From assembly GCA_013239625.1 (NCBI GenBank), contig MU053185.1, forward strand, positions 1 through 64,000: a stretch of 64,000 nt of DNA. The letters run 5' to 3'. The DNA comes from Lama guanicoe (lineage: Eukaryota). This document shows, piece by piece, positions 35,301 to 48,224 of this stretch. A model generated the notes under the pieces. The model was not told the DNA's origin, ran no database searches, and saw only the letters and a program-made list of their open reading frames with translations. Every line of letters starts with the position of its first letter. Within the stretch, counting starts at the first letter, position 1. The position numbers were made by a program, and so were the translations under genes.

Positions 35301-36907
35301 TGAATTATACTTATGTAAGCAGACTTGGAACAGTTATCTTTTCTATCTGATCCATCCAGAGACTGGAAACTCTTAGGTCCCCAGTGGCTCTATCAGATAA
35401 ATAAGGAAAATCACCTCCTAACAGGTATAGGAGTCTCAAGGTATTTTGAGGAACTTCAAAAGAAAAGAATTCACCTAAATATGTAAAGCAAAATCTGTGA
35501 CAAGCCCTTAACAAGGCTTACCTGGCCTTAGGAGACCTTACTAAAAATTCATCTTGAGTTCTGGCACAGACAGTTTAAAAGAGCCTATATGATCAAATAA
35601 TCAGACTTAATTTGCAGATAAATTAATCTTGATTTGACTATATTTGATAAAAATGAGGGTAACGTTAGAGAGAAAAAGATTGTATTTCAGTGGATATTAA
35701 ATTCTAGTTTTGTTAATTGAGGTCTATTTACTAAGACTCACCAGATCATTCCTTGCTGTTATGTTATATTGTTACTGTGTTTAATTGAATTATTAAAAGG
35801 ACACTCTAGGTTTGTTTCTGAAGCTCAGTAATCTATCCTTGGATGAAGATCTGATGCCCCATGACCTGCAAACAGGGGATTATACATACTGTAACAGACA
35901 TGATTTAAAAACTATCTTCAGCCTGAATGGAAGGACCCTTTATCAGGTACTCTTAACTAGACATGCACAGCAAAAGCTGAAGGAAACTGACTTTTGGATT
36001 AATTTCCAGTCAGAAAGAGCCCCTGCACTGGACTGATCTATAGAGCACTGCTCACCTTAAAACAATGCTCAGATGGAGAAGCTACCAGCCCAGGATGAGA
36101 AGATGACATCTGAGGTAGACAGCTGACCCAAGACACTGGACCAGATCTGTATACCAATTACTTTGATTATTGCTCATACCATTGCTTATGAACTAATCCA
36201 ACTGTTAGGTTTATGGTCAATTACCTATATCTAGCACTTCTGTGTTACCTTGGTGGGTTTCCCTACTCCAAGGCTCTAACTAGATAGCCCTGAGAAAATT
36301 TATTCTAAAAAAATTATAGTTCTATTTAGGCCACTATTGACATTACAAGGTGGGAACCCTCACCTGGCCAATTAATAATACCTGCTCTGAGCCTAGCCAT
36401 AAATATGAATTTTCTTATAAGATCACTCAAGCTCAACCAAGGCAACAAGCAAAATTTCAGCCAAAGAATATAACCTCCCTCAATTATGGAAAGGACTTAT
36501 ATGGTTAACACCAGGGTATAGACATTTAGGTTTAAAGGCTCTCTTATGTTGGAAAAAATTAAATTATACTAAAGATAACCAACCTAACAACACTAGGAAA
36601 TTTGGCTGGGAGTCTTACGAACAATGCCTGTATAACGTCTTCCTTAAAGATAAGGACTGATACAAAGCAGACTGTCAGATGACCCAGGGATACACTGAGC
36701 TGCACCTAATGAAAAATTTTGACTAAAATTCTTACTTATGACCTTACTAATACTTCTAACTATATTATTTGTATTTTGCCTGTTTTACAAAATTGTTGTT
36801 TCTTGCATTACCAAATGTATGACTGAGCCTCTGATAAAATAATGATTAGGGAACTTGAAAGAGTAGACAAGATACATACTTCTGTATGAGACCCATGATT
36901 GTAATAG
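32400..36907 (+). mobile_element. Non-autonomous MER4-group-like ERV internal mosaic with IN-tail and env remnants; resumes at 42901-43150
   Basis: W.GP.QVLL-like IN tail near 35930; LQNHMALNI-like env remnant near 33650; paralogous blocks at 32830-33130 and 35810-36430. Confidence 0.6.
34302..34958 (+). mobile_element. Solo LTR, family of provirus C
   Basis: TGTTAG...CAACA; TSD taac at 34298-34301 and 34959-34962; high identity to LTRs at 48225, 55309 and 58033. Confidence 0.95.
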
Positions 36908-37321
36908 TGTGAAGGAAAAGCCGGGCTGGTCTAACAAGATAACTCACAAATCTAAGTATGGGGATACTGATCTGAGTTCTGCTAGACTAACTCATAAATC
37001 TAAGTTAGTGTTGGTTTGCTGTTCATGTTTTTTTGCTAGCCAGCTGGATTTTCAAAGAGACATATCTGGCTTTGGAATGTTGGTTTGCTGCCTCCCTGCC
37101 TCCACTTTTGTGATAATGACTTTGCTAAAGCTGTTCCATGCCTATTGGCCGAATACCCCAAGCTTGTACTTTACCCTATAAAACCTCATGCGCACGTCTT
37201 GGAGGTGCTCAGAGCTTTGGAGCAGAAGCCCCTCTGAGCCCGCCGGCGTAATACATCTGAGTACTCCAACCCTCCGAGTGGTGCTTGTTTCTTGACTGGC
37301 CTGTCGTTTCCGTAACATTTC

Positions 37322-37339
37322 TGGAGGCCCCAGCGAGAT
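37322..37339 (+). promoter_or_regulatory. PBS tRNA-Thr(UGU)
   Basis: tggaggccccagcgagat, complementary to the recalled 3' 18 nt of tRNA-Thr(UGU). Confidence 0.85.
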
Positions 37340-38743
37340 ACAACCAGGCCGGCCCCTTGAGCCGCTGGACTGGTGGCTCCGGCCAACCAGGGGACAGGAT
37401 TCCGGCAGCGAACGGGGTGGCACCGCCCGACAGTATTCCGGGTTCTCCTTCGTGATGGCAACTCGGCCCCCCGGGTGGCTGGGCTACAACCAGAGCCAGA
37501 CTCCACGGAGGGACAGACAGACTCACCAGGTGGCTGTCCGGACAAGGTAGGAACCCCCGGGAGGAATCAGGTCCTGTCCCATTGGACAGAAGAGGAGGCT
37601 GATCCCCTCCTACAGGCTCTCCGTCTGATGGTATTTCAGACGGGGAAATCAGGTCAGGAATCAGGTCCCGTCCCAGTGGACAGAAGAGGAGGCGGATCCC
37701 CTCCTACAGGAAACAGGATATTGGTATTGGTGGGAGGACTGTTGTTAACCTCTGTGTATGTGTGTGTGTGTGTGTGAGTGAATGAGCGGCCTGTGAAGCA
37801 TGCGATCAGGCTCGAGTTTGTAGCTCCACGGCGTTCTGCTACGGAGTTCGAGTGAGTCCCAACCTGCGGTTCCGTGGTGACCTCATACGGCTCAGGGCGG
37901 TATCAGTCCCTCAGGGTCCCGATCGGAGTCAGCGGCTTATACTGACCCGCCAAAGCTAAGAGGCACCTTCGTCCCCGCGAGGGGAGCGGCCAGGCGGACG
38001 CAACGAAAACCCTCCCTTGTCTTGTCTGCGACACCGGCACAGGGTGGCTACACTGGGAGGGAAAAGGACATAGCCAATGAGTCAACGCCCCTGTGCCCTT
38101 GGAGGCTAGGATGCTATTTCTTTGAGAAAGTCTCCTACCTGACTCTGTCACAGAACACCCGAGACTTATTGTTCCCCTACTGAACTGACCCAAGTAGTGC
38201 CCCTTTTGCCTAGCCCCAGACACCCAGGACGTAAGTTTAGAAGACGAATTCCTTCAGGACCGGGCTTGCCCAGCCCTGGAGGTCCCTTTTCTAGTCCATT
38301 TGTTTTGCCATCTGCCGTCAGTCCCAGCAAAAGAGCAGTCTCTCTGGGAACTCCGGTGTTTTGAGGAGTGAAGAAGGAAAAGATATAAAGGCTACCTTCC
38401 CAAACATCTAGAGCAACAGATATGTTATCCTTAAACATCTAAAAAGAATGGGAGGCTCTAAGTCAAAACCCACCACTCTAGACTGCATGATTAAGAATTT
38501 CAAAACGGGGTTCTCAGGACACTATGGAATTCGAATGACCCCTGGCAGGCTCCGCACTTTGTGTGAGCTTGAATGGCCGGCCTTTGGAGTCGGGTGGCCC
38601 TCAGGAGGAACTCTGGACCTAGCAACAGTGCGAGCAGTCTATCAAATAATCACTGGAACCCCAGGCCACCCAGATCAATTCCCTTACATTGACTCCTGGC
38701 TGAATATCGCCCAGACTCTACCCCCATGGATTCGGTTTTGCTC

Positions 38744-39327
38744 NNNNNNNNNNNNNNNNNNNNNNNNNNNNNNNNNNNNNNNNNNNNNNNNNNNNNNNNN
38801 NNNNNNNNNNNNNNNNNNNNNNNNNNNNNNNNNNNNNNNNNNNNNNNNNNNNNNNNNNNNNNNNNNNNNNNNNNNNNNNNNNNNNNNNNNNNNNNNNNNN
38901 NNNNNNNNNNNNNNNNNNNNNNNNNNNNNNNNNNNNNNNNNNNNNNNNNNNNNNNNNNNNNNNNNNNNNNNNNNNNNNNNNNNNNNNNNNNNNNNNNNNN
39001 NNNNNNNNNNNNNNNNNNNNNNNNNNNNNNNNNNNNNNNNNNNNNNNNNNNNNNNNNNNNNNNNNNNNNNNNNNNNNNNNNNNNNNNNNNNNNNNNNNNN
39101 NNNNNNNNNNNNNNNNNNNNNNNNNNNNNNNNNNNNNNNNNNNNNNNNNNNNNNNNNNNNNNNNNNNNNNNNNNNNNNNNNNNNNNNNNNNNNNNNNNNN
39201 NNNNNNNNNNNNNNNNNNNNNNNNNNNNNNNNNNNNNNNNNNNNNNNNNNNNNNNNNNNNNNNNNNNNNNNNNNNNNNNNNNNNNNNNNNNNNNNNNNNN
39301 NNNNNNNNNNNNNNNNNNNNNNNNNNN
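38744..39327. other. Assembly gap (584 N)
   Basis: Run of n. Confidence 1.
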
Positions 39328-39343
39328 TCCTTCCTACTCTGAA

Positions 39344-39810
39344 AAACTGCAGGCATTTCAATCACATTATGGTCTAAACAAAATTAAGAAGAAGAGCTTC
39401 CACAATAATAGCAGATAAAGAGCCACTGGTAAACCTGTCAGGATTTTTGGCCTGCCCTCCAAAGAAAAGGAGTGAAAAGTGTCAGAGTGGGCCATGGAAG
39501 ACGTCAAGGGGAGCCACGCCAAGCAGCGGCGGATGGAACAGCAACCACTGCCACCTGGCAACAGCCGCAGCAGCAGCACCCCCAGCCCCGGCACCGCCTC
39601 CACCTGGGCCATCGCCGCCTCCACCTGGGCCACCGCCACCTCCATGGCAACTGTCGGGGAGCACCGGCCCCTGCCCAGTCCTGAAATGATGCTGGGATAG
39701 TAATAGGGCTCTGTCGCAGAGACATGCGAATATTTGGTCCCTGTCCAGCCCACAATGATTTCCACTTGGTGGTATGTGACGACTGTAATCAGGCTGTCAA
39801 GCCACAGGCT
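39344..39810 (+). pseudogene. ATXN7: Intronless, circularly permuted ATXN7 (ataxin-7) 5' fragment inside gag
   Basis: Encodes KLQAFQSHY, then ~98 nt of non-coding sequence, then SE.A.EDV.GEPR, QQPQQQHP, ASTWA..AMATVGEHRPLPSPEMMLG, GLCRRDMRIFGPCPAHNDFHLVVCDDCNQAVKPQA; these match the recalled ataxin-7 N-terminus. Confidence 0.93.
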
Positions 39811-40689
39811 ATGATTGACCTCTTAGAGTCTATCTTCCATTCTCACCGGCCCACCTGGGAAGATGCCCGCCAGCTGCTTCTGACTCTTTTCAATACAGAG
39901 GAGAGGAGACGCATTCTCACTGAAGCACGAAAATGGCCACAGGGCCTAGCCCCTGGGGACACAATGGATGTTGAGGGGTGGGCCATGACACATGCCCCTG
40001 ACACCAGACCAGATTGGGACTTTAACACCCAAGAAGGAAGAGAAGCACTGTGTGAGTACCGGGAGGCCATCCTACAAGGGCTAAGAGCGGGAGCCAAGAA
40101 GCCAACTAACATGTCTAAAACGACCACGGTGACCCAGAAGCCAGACGAGACCCTCACTGACTTCTATGAGAGACTATGTGAAGCATTCCGAGTCTACACT
40201 CCTTTTGATGCTGAGGCCCAAGAAAACCAGCGGATGGTCAACGCTGCCTTCGTAGCGCAATCATACCCAGATACACGCCGGAAACTCCAAAAACTGGATG
40301 GATTCACAGTGATGAACGCTACACAGCTGCTGGAAGTAGCAAACAAAGTTTTTGTAAACCGAGAACGGGAAGCCCAACGAGAAGCAGACCAGCGAATGAA
40401 GCAGAAAGCCGCATTCCTTGCAGCAGCCCTGGGGAAAACAAGCTTCTGCCAGAATCCTGCACCACCCGGAAGAGGGGACCCCAACCATGGATGCCCCTGG
40501 GCCGAGACCAGTGCGCATACTGCCGGGAGACAGGGCACTGGAAAAACGAGTGCCCAAACAGAAAGGATGGAAAGAGAGCACCCCCAAAAGGCCTACTTAT
40601 CAGCTGGAGCCACCAGCCAGTAATCACATCGGACTGGCTGGGGTCGACTCAGAACAGGAGAGACCACGCTCCCTGCCCCTGGGCCCCGG

Positions 40690-42230
40690 GAAGCCCAAGG
40701 TCAAGATATTTATAGGGGGCCAACCAATGACTTTTATGGTAGACACAGGAGCAAAGTATTCTGTGGTGACCCAACCTGTAGCCCCCCCCCCCCGACCAAG
40801 AAAAAGGCGACTATTATAGGGGCTACTGGGGACTCAACTGCCCGCCATTTCTGCCAGCCACGATCCTGTCGAGTAGGAGGCCATCTAGTGACACATGCCA
40901 TTATTCACTGTAAGGGACACCAAAAAGGAAATGACCCTGTGAGCCAGGGGAACAGGCTGGCTGATCAAAGGCAAGAGGCAGCTGCCTGGGAACACTCAGT
41001 AATTAAAGTTATGGCAGCACCAGAGCTACCCACTGCCCCCAGAATATAGCCACGATGAAAACAAGTGGGCACAGGCCGAACAGGGAAAGAAAGGAAAGGA
41101 TGGATGGTGGATCATGACGGATGGGAGGGTTTTCATCCCAGAACGACTAGCTTATCATCTAGTCCAACAACAACACAAAGCCACACACATGGGAAAAACG
41201 GCTTTGGAGGCCCTCTTAAAGCGATATTTCTTAATTTCTCATCTCCCTACTCTGTGCGCATCAGTCTCCCAACACTGCTTGCTCTGTGCACAAAACAATC
41301 CAAAACAAGGGCTCACTGGGCCAATGGGAATACAACGATGCGGATTGGCTCCCTTCAAAGATTTAGAAGTGGACTTTACTGAACTTGGGCCCAGTAAGGG
41401 ATAAAAGTACCTGCTGGTTTTCGTCTGCACCTTCACAGGGTGGGTAGAAGCCTACCGCACCAGGACAGAGAAAGCAAGAGAGGTAGCAAAGGCTCTCCTC
41501 AGGGATGTTATCCCTCGATTTGGAATGCCTACCTCCGTCAGGTCTGACAATGGACCCACCTTCATGGCAGAAATTGTACAGCAAGTGGCAAAGGCACTGA
41601 GCATCCCCCGGAACCTGCACACAGCATACCAGCCTCAAAGCTCAGGGAAGGTAAAACGAATGAACAGAACTCTAAAACAAATGATAGCTAAAATCAGCCA
41701 AGAAACCCAGCTCCCCTGGGTGGACATTTTACCCCTGGCTCTGTTGTGAATAAGATGCACCCCAAGATTTAATATTGGGTACTCTCCCTTTGAAATCCTC
41801 TATGGGCGACCGCCACCTTTAGTCAAGATGGGAAATCCCACCCCAGAAATAGGAAATTTAGGGCTCCAACAAAAACTGTTGGGACTAGGACAAGTACTAT
41901 GAGAAGTTTGGGGTTGGGTGATAAACCCCCATTTCATTAGGGGTCCAAATGCATCCCCATAAACCAGGTAACCAGGTATGGGTGAAGGACTGGAAAAAGG
42001 AACCTCTGAAACCAACATGGAAGGGACCATATTTAGTGGTATTAACTACCCCTACAGCTGTTAAAGTTGCAGGAATCATCCCTCGGGTCCACCACTCCAG
42101 GGTTAAGAGAGCGACTTCACGTCAGACAGAGGGTCCCTGGAAAATTTAGAGGGTCCCAGGAGACCCGCTCAAGATCAAGATCAAGAGGGACCAGAAAAGG
42201 ATCTACGAGCCCTGCTCTAGCCACACCCGG
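40690..42230 (+). pseudogene. pol: Provirus B pro plus RNase H tail plus integrase; RT deleted near 40897
   Basis: FMVDTGAKYSVV; jump to IIHCKGHQKG; HHCC (HKATHMG...CLLCAQ), EVDFTE, SDNGP, WKGPY motifs. Confidence 0.92.
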
Positions 42231-43150
42231 AAGCTGGCTAGTCAACACACGGCCGAAGCTTGAGGAAAGCTCAACGCAGCTGTTAAATGTATTTCTTTTG
42301 TGCTCCCTTGCCTCTTTCCTTGTTTACTATACTAGTCTGCATATTAGCAGTGGCGCTAGCTAGGGCCACCCCACCTGACTGGAACATAGGCCATAGAATC
42401 CTGATAGCTATTTTTTATCTTGTTATAATTAGTGCCATTGTGAAGGAAAAGCCAGGCTGGTCTAACAAGATAACTCAAGTCTAGGAATGTGAAGGAGAGG
42501 CTGGGCTGGTCTAACAAGATAACTCACAAATCTAAGTATTGGAATACTGATCTGAGTTCTGCTAGACTAACTTGTAAATCTAGGTTAATTAGTGTTGATT
42601 TGCTGCTCATGTTTTTTGCTAGCCAGCTGGGTTTTCAAAGAGACATATCTGGCTTTGGAATGTTGGTTTGCTGCCTCCCCACCTCCACTTTTGTGATGAT
42701 GCTGCTGCTAAAGCTGTTCCATGCCTATTGGCCGAATACCCCAAGCTTGTACTTTACCCTATAAAACCTCACACGCACGTCTTGGAGGTGCTCAGAGCTT
42801 CGGAGCAGAAGCCCCTCTGAGCCCGCCGGCGTAATACATCTGAGTACTCCAACCCTCCAAGTGGTGCTTATTTCTTGGCTGGCCTGTCGTTTCCATTACA
42901 ATAGTGCAAGTCTAGACATGGGAGGAGCAACAAGAGGGAATATTTTCCTGGATCATGATAGATGAGTAAGACAGGAGATCCAGAGAATTTTTGAGTATCA
43001 ATAGGGCCTAATCCCTGTTAACACCTTTGAGTAGCAGGTCAACAAAATCTTCCCGCGATCTAGGAATGAGCCTTCCTAGCACCATGGGACAAAATTGGTC
43101 ATGAAATGTCTCCCAAAATATTGGTTGAATTTAGGACCAAGGGGGAGCAC

Positions 43151-43627
43151 TGTGAACAAAAAACTGCAAGCCAAATCAGTAAACAAAGAATGCTAAAGCC
43201 GTCAAGTCATCAGCGGCTGCCGCCACCCTCCAGTGAAGACAAGCCTGCAGCCCAGCCTCTGCAGCCACTCACAGTGGCGCACTCTGAGGGGACTCAGAAT
43301 AAGAAAGGACAGGATACTGGCCCTAGATAGCCAGGTGCTTGTCAGAGGAATGAATTCAATGAGCCCACATGTTTGCTCCCTCCCATACATAGAAAAGCAC
43401 TAAACTCTTTAACTTGAGATGCCTGATTCTCTTTAGATAACAAGTAATCTTTTACTGTCCCAACTACCTGGTCTTTGTTATAAAGCTCCTGTATATCCTA
43501 GCTCCTCCCCTACCTCTTCGGAGCAGTCCCTCAGAGCCATCTGAGAGGCTGTCATCCTGGCTCAAGTCCTCCCGCCAAATAAAACATAACTGTCAACTTT
43601 TAGGTTGTGCATTTATTTCAGTCGACA
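43151..43627 (+). mobile_element. 3' LTR closing the MER4-like element; different family from the LTR at 30759
   Basis: PPT aagggggagcac then tgtgaac...gtcgaca; TATA-like tataaa; AATAAA near 43578. Confidence 0.85.
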
Positions 43628-44361: not shown

Positions 44362-47300
44362 ATTGGTTCCTATCAGGGAAATGTATGTGGGGGCTCATCT
44401 CAGGCCCAGCTGAGTGACCCCAGGCATTTCTATTCAATTGCATTGCTACTGATAGGCTGAGAACAGCACAAAACAATTGGCCTAGCTGACAGGACTGCAT
44501 GATGGCCTTTGCAATTAATCAAGGGAACACCCTTTAGCTGTAACTGGCTTGCTCGCTGACTAACCCAGATGGGTGACACCATCTGGGAACAGAACACTGC
44601 TTGCTGGAGGGCGGTCATGCTGCTGCGTGCTTTCCCATATTGCCTCTGTCGTGTGCTGCCTGTGGTACCCACCCCAAAATGTCACTGCTGCCATAATAAT
44701 TCAATGATCTCCCCAGAGCAGTGAGATCAAGGCCATATGGTCTAATGAGGCAATTAGATCACTAATTAAAAAGGCTTTAATTGGCTGTTAATGTACATGA
44801 GGGTCCCACACACCTCCTGCTATGCAAAGTTGGCATGATCCAATGGCTCTGTCATTTCTATGACCATAGTGACCCAAATGATCCCCTGAATTGCCAACCC
44901 TGGATTTGCCCCATTTGACCCTAAGTCCAGATCGTATTCTTTTTACTAATTCCAGGGCAGTGCTACTGCATTTTGGAGACATTCCTGAAACTATCAGGCA
45001 CTGGAGGGCACTGACATGGTTGCTAGACATAGACACTGCCGCCCAGATGCCCCAATACTTCAGACTTGTCGCCTTCTGTCCCCACTGCCCCAGAAAGGTC
45101 TCCCACAAACAAATTTTCCTCAATGGAAAGGGTTTCCCACTCCCTCCCTAATAAACCCCTGATGTAATTTTGCCCCTTATGGTACTGGGAGTTACGGAAA
45201 CTTAGGGTTTTTGGCCAATCTCTGGATAGCGAGTCTCTAAACTCCAGGCCCTGAAACTAACATTCTCCCAGCTATAGCATTCTTCTGCTGTCCAGCCTCT
45301 TGCCACACCCCTCTAGCCCCAAGCCAATCCCCACTATTCCCTCTACCCCTTCCCTAACCTCTAGTACTGGCAGCCTACTTAAGCTCCTACCCTAGGAAAT
45401 CAACAGTTCCCTGTGCTGGGCCCACCTCCCAGAGTCAATCAACCCTATACCACTCTGGTGGTCCATTAGTACAATAAAAAGACACAGTCCTTTTTGGCCC
45501 TACTAGACATGGGGACCCAAGCCACTCATTCCAAGCAATCCTTCTAAATCTCAAAAAAAGATGCCCTTCTACCTACAAGGCATTGCCAGTAAAACAATCA
45601 AAGGTGTACAAATCCACCTGGATATCCCTAACAGGACCATTCACTTCAAATGGCTTCCTTTGGTGGTGGCCACCAGCTTGTTCTTTCATATTATAGGTGT
45701 GGATGCACTGACATGATGCCATGCCCATGGAAAAAGCCCAAGTTCTTGGCCTTCTTGGTGGGACTGACCAAATGGATGTCAGTGACTCTTCCCTCCTGGT
45801 CGAGACAGTAAACACTACCCAATATCGATGTAAACACAGCAGGGAGGGCCTACACCCTGTCATGTAAGATACACTTCAGCCCGGAGTCAGGAAGCCACAA
45901 TCTCCCCTTTCAATAGCCCCATTTGGCCGATATCTAGACCAGCCACCAACGAATGGCACCTCACCATTGACTATCAAGACCTCAGTTCTCAGGTTCCCTA
46001 TTAAGGCTTCAATTCCTAATAATACAGAACTGAGTGAGGACATATAATCGGCCCAAGGAGTGTCCTTTGTTGACCCACTAACCTGTTCTATTCTGTTCCC
46101 ATCTCAGAGGAGTCTCAGGCTCAATTTTCTTTCACTTTTGAAAGGAGTGAATATACATTTATGTGGTTCCCAATGGGATATTTAAACAGCCCTGCAATCA
46201 CACATAATCTCTGCCACCAAAATGTTAATACCTTACACTTGGAAAGGTGTCATTTTGGGCATTATATTGACGACACTATGTTCAGGTGTCCTTCTGAGAA
46301 AACAGGACGAGCAGATTTTGCCCCCCTCACACACCACCTACACCAGTGTGGCTGGGCAATCGCCCCTCACAAGATCCAAGGCCCTGCCTCATCTGTCAAA
46401 TTTCTGGGTGTCTAGTCCCCCAAGGACTGAGAAATTTCCCCAACAATAATTACTCACCATTAAATCACCCACGACACTCAGACAAGCACAACACATATTA
46501 GGCCTTTTCATGTGCGGGAGGCAACACATCACATCTCAATGTTTTTTCGTCCTATGTACACAATCACATACAAGTCGGCCACTTTCCATTGGGGTGAAGC
46601 CCAACAGTGTGCTTTGACAGCTTTCCAGCAGAAAGGCCACAAAACTTTACCTTTAGTCCCCAACTGGCTCCATAGTCCATGTCAAGTCATTGGCCACACC
46701 TGACTAACCCTCCTGGAGTCTCAGGAGCAAACAGGAGACTACCTGGCTTCCCATGGGGTTTGGGATCCCTGGCAGCAGACACATATACTCCCCTTAAACA
46801 CCAGCTTTTGGCATCCTTTTTGGGCTCTTTTAGGAACTGAATCCCTAAGCAGGCCCCACCTGGTACTACTCTAAATACAAGTTCCCATGATGCCCTGTGT
46901 TAGAGATGTCTTTCAAGAGAAAAGCTCAGCACAGCCACCAATGCCTCCTTAGTGACATGGAAATGGTACCTTCAGGAGAGAGCTAAACGTGACGTCAAAG
47001 GCCTTCCAAATTATAGGAGGATGTGGCTTCCCCGATGCTCAGCCCCTTGCCGGACAGCCTCAAGGAACAGCAGCACCCCCTCCCATTCTCCTCCTGTGGC
47101 TCCTTGGGGAGCCCGTGGGGAGCAACTGTCTGGACCTGTAGCTGTTCACCTAGCCCTTAAGGAGGCCATAAAAAGGGCCTTTCACAGATCCCTATTTTCA
47201 CAGACTCCTGGACTGTTGCTAACAGCCTTGCAGTTTGGTCTGGCCAATGGCTCAGGGACAGTTTTCTCATACAAGGCAAGTCCACCTGGGGCTCCTAGAT

Positions 47301-48224
47301 ACAGGAGGAACTAGGAGAATCCCAGTCCCTCTCAGCGGTACTCACAGTTCCACTCCCTCTAACCACCCCACACCAGAAGCCATTTTCAACAATACTGCAG
47401 ACCCTCTCACTCAGCCCTCCACTCTCTGCCAGGTAGATGCCTCCGGGCGCTGACCCTTCTCACCAGCTTTTAAAATGGGCTCACAGCACCTTGGGTCATC
47501 GGATACTCGTGCCTTAATAACTTGGGCTCAAGTGAGGGCCCCCACCCCTCAGCAGCAGCCAAGATTGTGATACACGAACGCACTCTCTGCAACCAAACTA
47601 GACATCGGGGGCTACCCGATAGGGACATACTCCCGGGGGGAGACTGACCATACGCCCACTGGCAGATTGATTTCATCAGCCCATGGCCCCCTTCTGCTGG
47701 GCTTTCCAGATACCCCATCGCATTCATGGATACTTACATGGGACTCCTCTTGGCGAACTCTACCTGGAATTCCTCCTCAAAACACATAATCTCTTTCCTC
47801 ACTAAGTTTATTGGTCCCTTTGGATTGCCATTGTTGACTGTGACCAGGACACCCACTTCACCTCTCAGAAGAATCACCAGTGAGCTCTTCCAACAAAGTG
47901 GCTTTCAAAACTTCTAGCAAGGTTATGCCCCCAGGTGGCTGACCTCATTGAGCATCTTAATGACCTCCTTAAAGAGATATGACTTAAATTGTTTTCAAGC
48001 AAGTGGTTCTTGAAATGGATCGAACTCTCGTCCCAGGTCCTCATCTTCCTTAATCTTCACCCCCTGAGCCTTCATACCCACATACCAATTATTATACACC
48101 CTCCCCACAAATTCCATTTTCAGTCATGTCTGGTAATCCTCATGCTTTTACACTAACACGATGTCCTTTTTATTGTGTCCTCTAACTCCGCTTCCCCCTG
48201 CTGCTATAACTTTTTGCATCATAC
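44362..48224 (+). pseudogene. pol: Class III (ERV-L-like) gag-pro-pol remnant; probably continues at 58688-60420
   Basis: LALLD.GTQ protease; FNSPIWP; FPMGYLNSPAITHNLC; HYIDD; GWAIAPHKIQGPASSVKFLGV; WQIDFI. Confidence 0.85.

Follow-up and report, generated by a model that had tools for sequence, protein, structure and literature searches.

How did a stretch of spliced host messenger RNA, with its exons in rotated order, come to lie within a retroviral gag gene? The question is raised by a locus of the guanaco, Lama guanicoe, in a window of 64,000 nucleotides (nt) that was analysed at its full length (GenBank assembly GCA_013239625.1, contig MU053185.1, positions 1 to 64,000, forward strand); all positions given here are those of the window. 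It contains a gamma-type endogenous retrovirus (ERV), a provirus of 5,993 bp at 36908-42900, whose two long terminal repeats (LTRs) both begin with TG and end with CA. The N-terminal part of the capsid coding region is interrupted by an insert derived from ATXN7, the gene for ataxin-7, which is 455 nt long as the sequence now stands. The insert is on the same strand as gag, i.e. host-derived sequence stands in viral sense between two LTRs. In the explanation that we favour, with slightly better than even confidence, this camelid ERV gag carries one full lap of a spliced circular ATXN7 RNA, captured when reverse transcriptase (RT) switched template at a homology of 8-11 nt and then switched back.

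The order of the ataxin-7 residues in the insert is rotated. Its right part encodes residues 125-162 (E 4.8e-15) and ends at K-P-Q-A at the right junction, and the middle part, upstream of these, encodes residues 31-91 (E 5e-4). The insert opens with AFQSHY, and ataxin-7 itself reads KPQAFQS, with AFQSHY directly after KPQA. Given this start and the order of the residues, the insert is an uninterrupted piece of ATXN7 mRNA that has been circularly permuted and opened at KPQA.

The exons can be followed through the insert on the forward strand. The last 17 nt of exon 5 (FQSHY and a G, 39355-39371), up to the splice donor, are followed by 98 nt resembling 5' untranslated region (UTR; 39372-39469). 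This piece lies directly upstream of the mapped start of exon 3 and is the presumed acceptor side of a back-splice, with exon 2 or an upstream acceptor of exon 3 as candidates. Its GC content is 0.40 and it lacks CpG, compared with 0.67 GC in exon 3; nothing else in the window matches it, and Rfam gives no significant match. The Rfam family HTT-AS1 was rejected as a chance match (21.6 bits vs a gathering score of 100). Exon 3 (39470-39697) comprises 9 nt of 5' UTR, a decayed start codon (GTG at 39479) and a short Gln/Pro-rich tract running to ...PSPEMMLG, which corresponds to residues 31-91. The exon-3 start of a human junction primer maps to 39470-39479 with two mismatches (both CG to TG or G to A). 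At 39698-39706 the residue ranges reveal the scar of an internal deletion of ∼99 nt (residues 92-124) across the junction of exons 3 and 4, a position inferred from the published sizes of the smallest human circle (336 nt, all of exon 3) and of the two-exon circle (405 nt). Exon skipping as the cause of the missing residues was rejected, as the gap spans the exon 3|4 junction and not exon ends. Two human primers that lie in the missing part, circ1_F and circ1_F2, have no match in the insert. The last 15 nt of exon 4 (39707-39721; human junction primer, three mismatches) run without an intron into the first part of exon 5 (39722-39798, DMRIFGPCPAH...CNQAV, placed by residues 125-162 and by alignment to a genomic exon), and the source was thus a spliced RNA. 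Only exons within the circle are present, with nothing from downstream of exon 5.

The genomic exon comes from L001, the sole vertebrate genomic ATXN7 contig found when metagenome contigs were scanned with 22 nt of the window; the same 22-nt exon-5 pattern has no match in a viral contig collection. In L001 the exon encoding DMPIFG...KPQAFQSHY is 105 nt long, lies between ...tttttag and gtaagt, and starts at the place matching 39722. Exon 5 of the window accordingly consists of 39722-39809 plus 39355-39371, and the same 17 nt end the exon in L001, directly before gtaagt. Colinearity with ATXN7 therefore breaks at 39371|39372, exactly at the exon-5 donor, and this coincidence of an internal break with a splice donor strengthens a circular origin. 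L001 is a 20-kb contig carrying exon 5 at 1417-1522 on the reverse strand, and the long AT-rich introns around the exon mark it as host DNA within a metagenome. It reads LVMCNHCNQ where human ataxin-7 has LVVCNDCNQ, and its source is thus probably not a mammal close to human; exon 4 was not seen in the 1.4 kb upstream of its exon 5.

Both ends of the insert lie at copies of one 11-mer. The left end (39341-39358) reads gaa AAACTGCAGGC attt and the right end (39796-39813) reads gtc AAGCCACAGGC tatg, exactly as an earlier note, made from the letters of the window, had given them. The copies, at 39344-39354 and 39799-39809, are 455 nt apart and identical at 8 of 11 places, with CAGGC exact, and each stays in frame with gag as well as with ATXN7 (left, PSYSE-KLQA-FQSHY; right, CNQAV-KPQA-MIDLL). 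Beyond the 11-mer, a comparison of left and right flanks shows no likeness. No A-run or poly(A) is present at either end of the insert, and ATXN7 coding sequence reaches the right repeat, in line with the earlier note, which had reported no poly(A) tail. At the junctions there is likewise no separate target duplication and no nick site of the L1 type.

The three differences between the copies are largely explained by decay, as seen in contigs of four public DNA runs (X2, X7, X10 and X12, with four organism labels) placed on 39328-43500 at 80% likeness. The proline codon of the right copy is CCA in the window, and the left copy now has CTG (Leu) there. Other contigs read G at 39804, giving CCG (14 in X2, 13 in X10, 7 in X7 and 11 in X12), and left CTG and right CCA are thus each one CpG transition away from the same codon. 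Two of the three differences are CpG decay, and the homology probably extended over 10 or 11 of the 11 places at the time of the event, judging from these letters; the repeat is equally ATXN7 sequence. The remaining difference is AAA on the left against AAG on the right. Since ATXN7 has AAA in L001, this is what minus-strand copy-choice would leave if gag had AAG, a weak hint from one base.

Insert-free relatives of this gag show what the site looked like before. The nearest named relative, a 499-residue gag protein of the same family from Vicugna pacos (P0151), has 99% identity over the matrix and 90% over the capsid part. Its site reads ...HHTPSYSEKPQAMIDLIESIFHSHRPTWED..., with KPQA directly before MIDL (PSYSEKPQA|MIDL), and the window reads PSYSEKLQA, an insert ending in KPQA, and then MIDLLESIFHSHRPTWED. 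When insert-free PSYSEKPQAMIDL is set against PSYSE-K(L)QA / KPQA-MIDLL, the gag residues abut with none lost or gained, which upholds the view that no gag codons had been lost. The last visible gag codons before the insert, (P)SYSE at 39328-39343, agree with ...PSYSE... of P0151. KPQA was expected to belong to both parents, and a look at insert-free gag had been proposed: it stands at the site in 4/4 named camelid gag proteins (P0151 and 3/3 from Camelus), as it does in ATXN7, and only the left copy of the window has since become K-L-Q-A. SEKPQAM is shared by the three Camelus proteins and one further protein. Of 150 representatives of distant relatives, 86 reach upstream of the site; the most frequent tetrapeptide at this position is KPQA (9/86), and xPQA occurs in 17/86. 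An insert-free form is also present in the DNA runs. In X2 and X10, 39351 is joined to 39808 with a single letter in between; the left side of this joint measures only 24 nt, since the stretch used for placing the contigs begins at 39328. Insert-free contigs (e.g. records 2 and 10) start fitting within the right 11-mer, at 39805, after ∼160 unplaced letters.

The insert is not confined to the window. A search for other copies with the same insert had been suggested by the earlier note, and diverged contigs bridging the junction from ATXN7 to gag were found in X2, X10 and X7. Three records of 407-408 nt, 15 (X2), 1 (X10) and 22 (X7), align to 39457/8-39889 with 51 differing letters and 25 gaps; record 16 (X2), 444 nt long, aligns to 39629-40023 with 53 differing letters. 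Each of the four extends by more than 31 letters to either side of 39809|39810, and ∼12% of their letters differ from the window. Records 15 and 16 overlap by 261 nt within the same run and would represent two loci. The deletion scar is crossed without extra letters by records 1, 8, 15 and 22, and at 39495 five to nine contigs per run read a letter other than that of the window. These sequences suggest that the chimera spread after one capture that already carried the deletion, with at least two further copies. The divergence of ∼12% exceeds the 5.6% between the LTRs of the provirus in the window and thus suggests separate integrations rather than later duplication of the window locus, with the caveat that a CpG-rich insert decays faster than average and that the copies were compared without their flanks, LTRs and target duplications. 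In the Pro-rich part of the insert, a 21-nt unit is repeated 2.4 times at 39594-39644. This tandem repeat is probably private to the window, and fits the shortfall of ∼25 nt that records 1, 8, 15 and 22 show there. A stretch of 104 nt within the insert (39463-39566) is missing from a single contig per run in all four runs, at several times the single-contig depth and with only 30 nt on the shorter side of the joint; these contigs may mark a sub-group of chimeric copies with a second deletion.

How would an RNA circle enter a provirus? Many host RNAs are carried by retroviral particles, and RNase H removes RNA that has been copied. The circle would have consisted of ATXN7 exons 3, 4 and 5 plus 98 nt of upstream 5' UTR, closed by a back-splice from the exon-5 donor. 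During minus-strand synthesis, RT would have copied gag down to the K-P-Q-A codons, where the nascent 3' end could anneal to the matching 8-11 nt of a circular ATXN7 RNA inside the particle, and synthesis would then have gone one turn round the circle. After one turn the enzyme meets the end of its template, and its 3' end again matches gag. With the already copied stretch degraded by RNase H, the end would have re-paired with the viral K-P-Q-A and continued into gag; the length of exactly one lap would follow from this removal of copied RNA. The predicted product is gag ... KPQA, one lap, KPQA ... gag, in one sense, without poly(A) and with every gag residue kept and none added. Stop codons in the insert leave the element unable to make its own Gag, and it presumably reached further loci carried by intact relatives. 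The earlier note had proposed a switch onto a co-packaged circle and back after one lap. Its circular origin is now backed by the donor-exact break; the acceptor of the circle, the left junction and the action of the virus's own RT within the particle keep the standing of presumptions. We infer that this enzyme made the switch, and that it did so in the particle; another RT acting on an integrated provirus would leave the same picture.

The latter is the core of an explanation that we regard as rather unlikely and nevertheless a serious one, in which a circATXN7 cDNA was inserted into an integrated provirus, by L1 ORF2p priming on the 11-nt homology or by microhomology-mediated break repair, and the altered provirus was later transcribed and copied elsewhere. 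In its favour, the 11-mer repeat is as long as a target duplication would be, the site lies within an A-run (GAAAAA), and spread to other loci would fit equally well. The bottom-strand nick thus implied, however, lies in a T-run followed by pyrimidines, which is not of the TTTT/AA type of L1, and a pure gag duplication would have given like copies where the left has AAA and the right AAG, a weak point from one base. A duplication equal to the host homology at the exact permutation point would in any case need homology-guided joining. Pseudogenes derived from circular RNAs (circRNAs) without poly(A) do exist outside retroviruses, by a mechanism called mysterious (PMC4897178), whereas L1 requires poly(A), as cited in the same paper, and none is seen here. 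The absence of poly(A), the nick site and the fact that template switching is routine for retroviral RT place this insertion below template switching in our judgement. The earlier verdict that L1 fits poorly thus holds for the absence of poly(A), of an L1-type nick site and of a separate target duplication, and is softened by the share of probability left to insertion after integration.

A non-circular source is improbable in our view. It would be a linear RNA with repeated or scrambled exons, from trans-splicing or gene duplication, or else RT would have switched twice in succession on linear ATXN7 transcripts, in one case at the end of an RNA. Non-colinear junctions can come from open-ended, highly structured RNAs (PMC4897178), trans-spliced non-colinear transcripts are documented (PMC6283421, in the part available to us), and the acceptor side at 39372 is presumed. 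Against such a source, the break coincides exactly with the exon-5 donor, a position at which a linear spliced mRNA does not terminate; the insert amounts to precisely one lap, entered and left through the same homology; and several ATXN7 circles are known from these very exons. Very improbable, finally, is an artefact of assembly beside a scaffold gap. A run of 584 N (38744-39327) ends 17 nt before the left junction, and the distance from the end of the matrix to PSYSE is 586 nt in the window vs 417 nt in insert-free P0151, or 169 nt more; either the gap size is an estimate or the p12 region has ∼170 extra bases. Independent, diverged contigs nevertheless bridge the right junction in three runs, the visible 27 nt on the left are in frame as gag, and a shared 8-11 nt would be too short to mislead a k-mer assembler.

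Several observations weigh against capture of a circle by template switching. A likeness of 8/11 is reached by 199 of 62,485 position pairs at the same spacing (0.3%), and it is the geometry of the junctions, not the likeness of the 11-mers alone, that exceeds chance. Owing to the N-run only 27 nt of gag are visible left of the insert, and the left junction and the back-splice point, the latter 44 nt from the run, are read from this assembly only; none of the 32 contig records listed (24,564 further ones exist) crosses either of them. The 98 nt at 39372-39469 are matched to no exon. Spread to further loci follows equally from insertion into an already integrated provirus. Summed contig depth, which is ∼10-35 times the long single-contig depth over the insert and ∼100 times over gag, is not copy number, and only counts of distinct contigs were used. 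In the protein collection, a chimeric open reading frame (ORF) across the right junction was found in 0/5 proteins of near length and 0/5 shorter ones, and 0/35 N-terminal gag ORFs end in the ATXN7 tail, all matches covering the gag part only; an ATXN7 motif occurs in 0/189 proteins compared. This collection seems to hold few camelid ERV ORFs, and a missing chimeric ORF there does not show absence.

Capture by template switching has parallels in known systems, and the locus differs from each. Retroviral transduction, as in the capture of oncogenes, proceeds by RT template switching (copy-choice, or illegitimate recombination). It shares with the locus intron-free host RNA sequence in viral sense between LTRs, a short crossover homology and a defective genome that spreads with helpers. 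Classical capture, in contrast, begins with read-through transcripts of a provirus upstream of a gene, and viral genes are lost in exchange. The present locus instead points to a closed circle as template, no viral sequence has given way to the insert, and a single site served for both entry and exit. Processed pseudogenes made by L1 are likewise intron-free copies of host RNA flanked by short direct repeats. They differ in that the insert lacks poly(A) and a nick site of the L1 type, its repeat is a homology between host and virus, and its exon order is circularly permuted.

The closest counterparts are the circRNA-derived pseudogenes described by Dong et al. (2016, Cell Res 26:747, PMC4897178), of which mouse circRFWD2 has 33 copies with LTR sequences enriched in their flanks. 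Spliced non-colinear exons, absence of poly(A), many copies and an association with LTR elements are common to both. Unlike those pseudogenes, the insert lies inside the gag frame of a two-LTR provirus, comprises exactly one lap, and has base-level junctions at the same 8-11-nt homology; PMC4897178 gives no junction anatomy. Spliced exons, the lack of poly(A) and the restriction to exons of the circle are all observed in the window, as is the donor side of the non-colinear junction, and the acceptor side is presumed. The anatomy of the locus is thus that of a circRNA-derived pseudogene, with a presumed acceptor, and its proposed mechanism resembles retroviral transduction; the novelty lies in this combination and in junctions that can be read to the base. 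A literature search covering few subscription journals found no retroviral capture of a circular RNA, only reviews citing PMC4897178.

Nine human ATXN7 circRNAs are on record, including (3,4), (3,4,5) and (2,3,4,5) and also an 'L3' form. Among them are circATXN7(3,4).1 (hsa_circ_0007761, 405 nt), circATXN7(2,3,4,5).1 (hsa_circ_0002634) and (3,4,5).1; hsa_circ_0066436, which consists of exons 9-11, is irrelevant to the insert. Primers spanning the back-splice of human circATXN7(3,4).1 are given in a 2026 paper on human ATXN7 circles (supplementary Table 2), and their exon-3 start and exon-4 end map onto the insert, which shares its gene and exons with the human circles, the CAG-bearing exon 3 among them. 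In the camelid circle, by contrast, the exon-5 donor is joined to a site 98 nt before exon 3, putatively exon 2, as in human (2,3,4,5), and the fossil copy has lost ∼99 nt across the exon 3|4 junction. Given the human circles, there would be precedent for a back-splice that joins exon 5 to exon 2 or to a more upstream exon-3 acceptor. No exon-2 or exon-5 junction sequence is given in the papers on other ATXN7 circles, nor in the available portion of the text of PMC13313202.

The locus suggests how circular RNAs get copied back into genomes. One exact lap, a single homology for entry and exit, viral sense and the lack of poly(A), all seen at base level, are the features expected when an RNase H-proficient RT performs copy-choice on a closed template. 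We put forward only tentatively that switching of retroviral or ERV RT onto circular RNAs held in particles is a general route by which circRNA pseudogenes arise and multiply. If so, the locus would be a fossil of circRNA packaging in virions, from an event older than a provirus that integrated ∼13-25 million years ago; the same process would explain the mouse circRFWD2 copies among LTR sequences, and the limit of one lap would be the mark left by an RNase H-proficient RT, which degrades the circle during copying. The mechanism of circRNA-derived pseudogenes, which have been known since 2016 and linked with LTR elements, would become testable in camelid assemblies and with cell-free RT. A 2026 preprint reports, in the part available to us, circRNAs in virions of human immunodeficiency virus 1, and the packaging of circRNAs in retroviral particles would gain evolutionary depth from the locus.

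The provirus itself is dead and heavily deleted. Its 5' LTR (36908-37317) and 3' LTR (42488-42900) align with 385 matches, 23 mismatches (21 of them transitions) and 7 gap places, i.e. 94.4% identity or 5.6% between LTRs, and a 4-bp target duplication, ATAG, stands directly outside both (36904-36907 and 42901-42904). The Kimura distance between the LTRs is 0.0595, corresponding to ∼13.5 million years at 2.2e-9 and ∼25 million years at 1.2e-9 substitutions/site/year, rates that we take as given. The stretch just after the 5' LTR (37318-37340) resembles a primer-binding site for a threonine tRNA. The gag matrix lies at 38448-38743 (Pfam Gag_MA, E 1.2e-16; 99% identity to P0151 over the shared part) and its frame is open up to the N-run, which hides p12 and the start of the capsid. 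Capsid and nucleocapsid (39810-40623) restart at MIDLLESIF... after the insert, with Gag_p30 (E 2e-46), correspondence to capsid residues 33-64 of murine leukemia virus (MLV) and 1,592 relatives. The nearest solved capsids are MLV-type; in the viral contig collection the capsid protein has no relative. Remnants of pol at 40694-41749 comprise the start of the protease and the zinc finger and core of the integrase (Pfam RVP 2.5e-5, Integrase_H2C2 5.8e-6, rve 1.7e-13). LTRs of the form TG...CA, the 4-bp duplication, MLV-type Gag_MA and Gag_p30, protease and integrase together assign the element to the gamma-type (class I) ERVs. Six ORFs downstream of the insert were scanned with Pfam and gave no match to RT, RNase H or env; the last of them (42046-42363) matches no family.

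Large deletions have shaped the internal region. The protease stops after ∼35 residues and the integrase is partial (40820-41000, 41750-42487), and other copies contain skips of 1,109 nt, with joints from 40911 to 42021 and from 40946 to 42056, which indicates several deletion forms in the family. The leader between the 5' LTR and gag holds a 55-nt direct repeat (37562-37616 and 37656-37710, 95% alike and 94 nt apart) and after it a (GT)n run at ∼37757-37777. A 39-nt copy of the first LTR bases lies at 42437-42475, 12 nt upstream of the 3' LTR, and its letters vary in other copies. Over the LTR (42408 on) and at 43108-43500 the summed contig depth is 30-100 times that of gag, and the LTR, as solo copies, and the neighbouring repeat are thus far more numerous than the internal region. 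RNA runs X15-X17 contain 22-27% of the sampled words, a figure from which no claim on expression is made. Downstream of the provirus lies an older, different retroelement, with ORFs at 46074-46415 and 47648-47917 that contain RT-like (YIDD) and integrase-like motifs.

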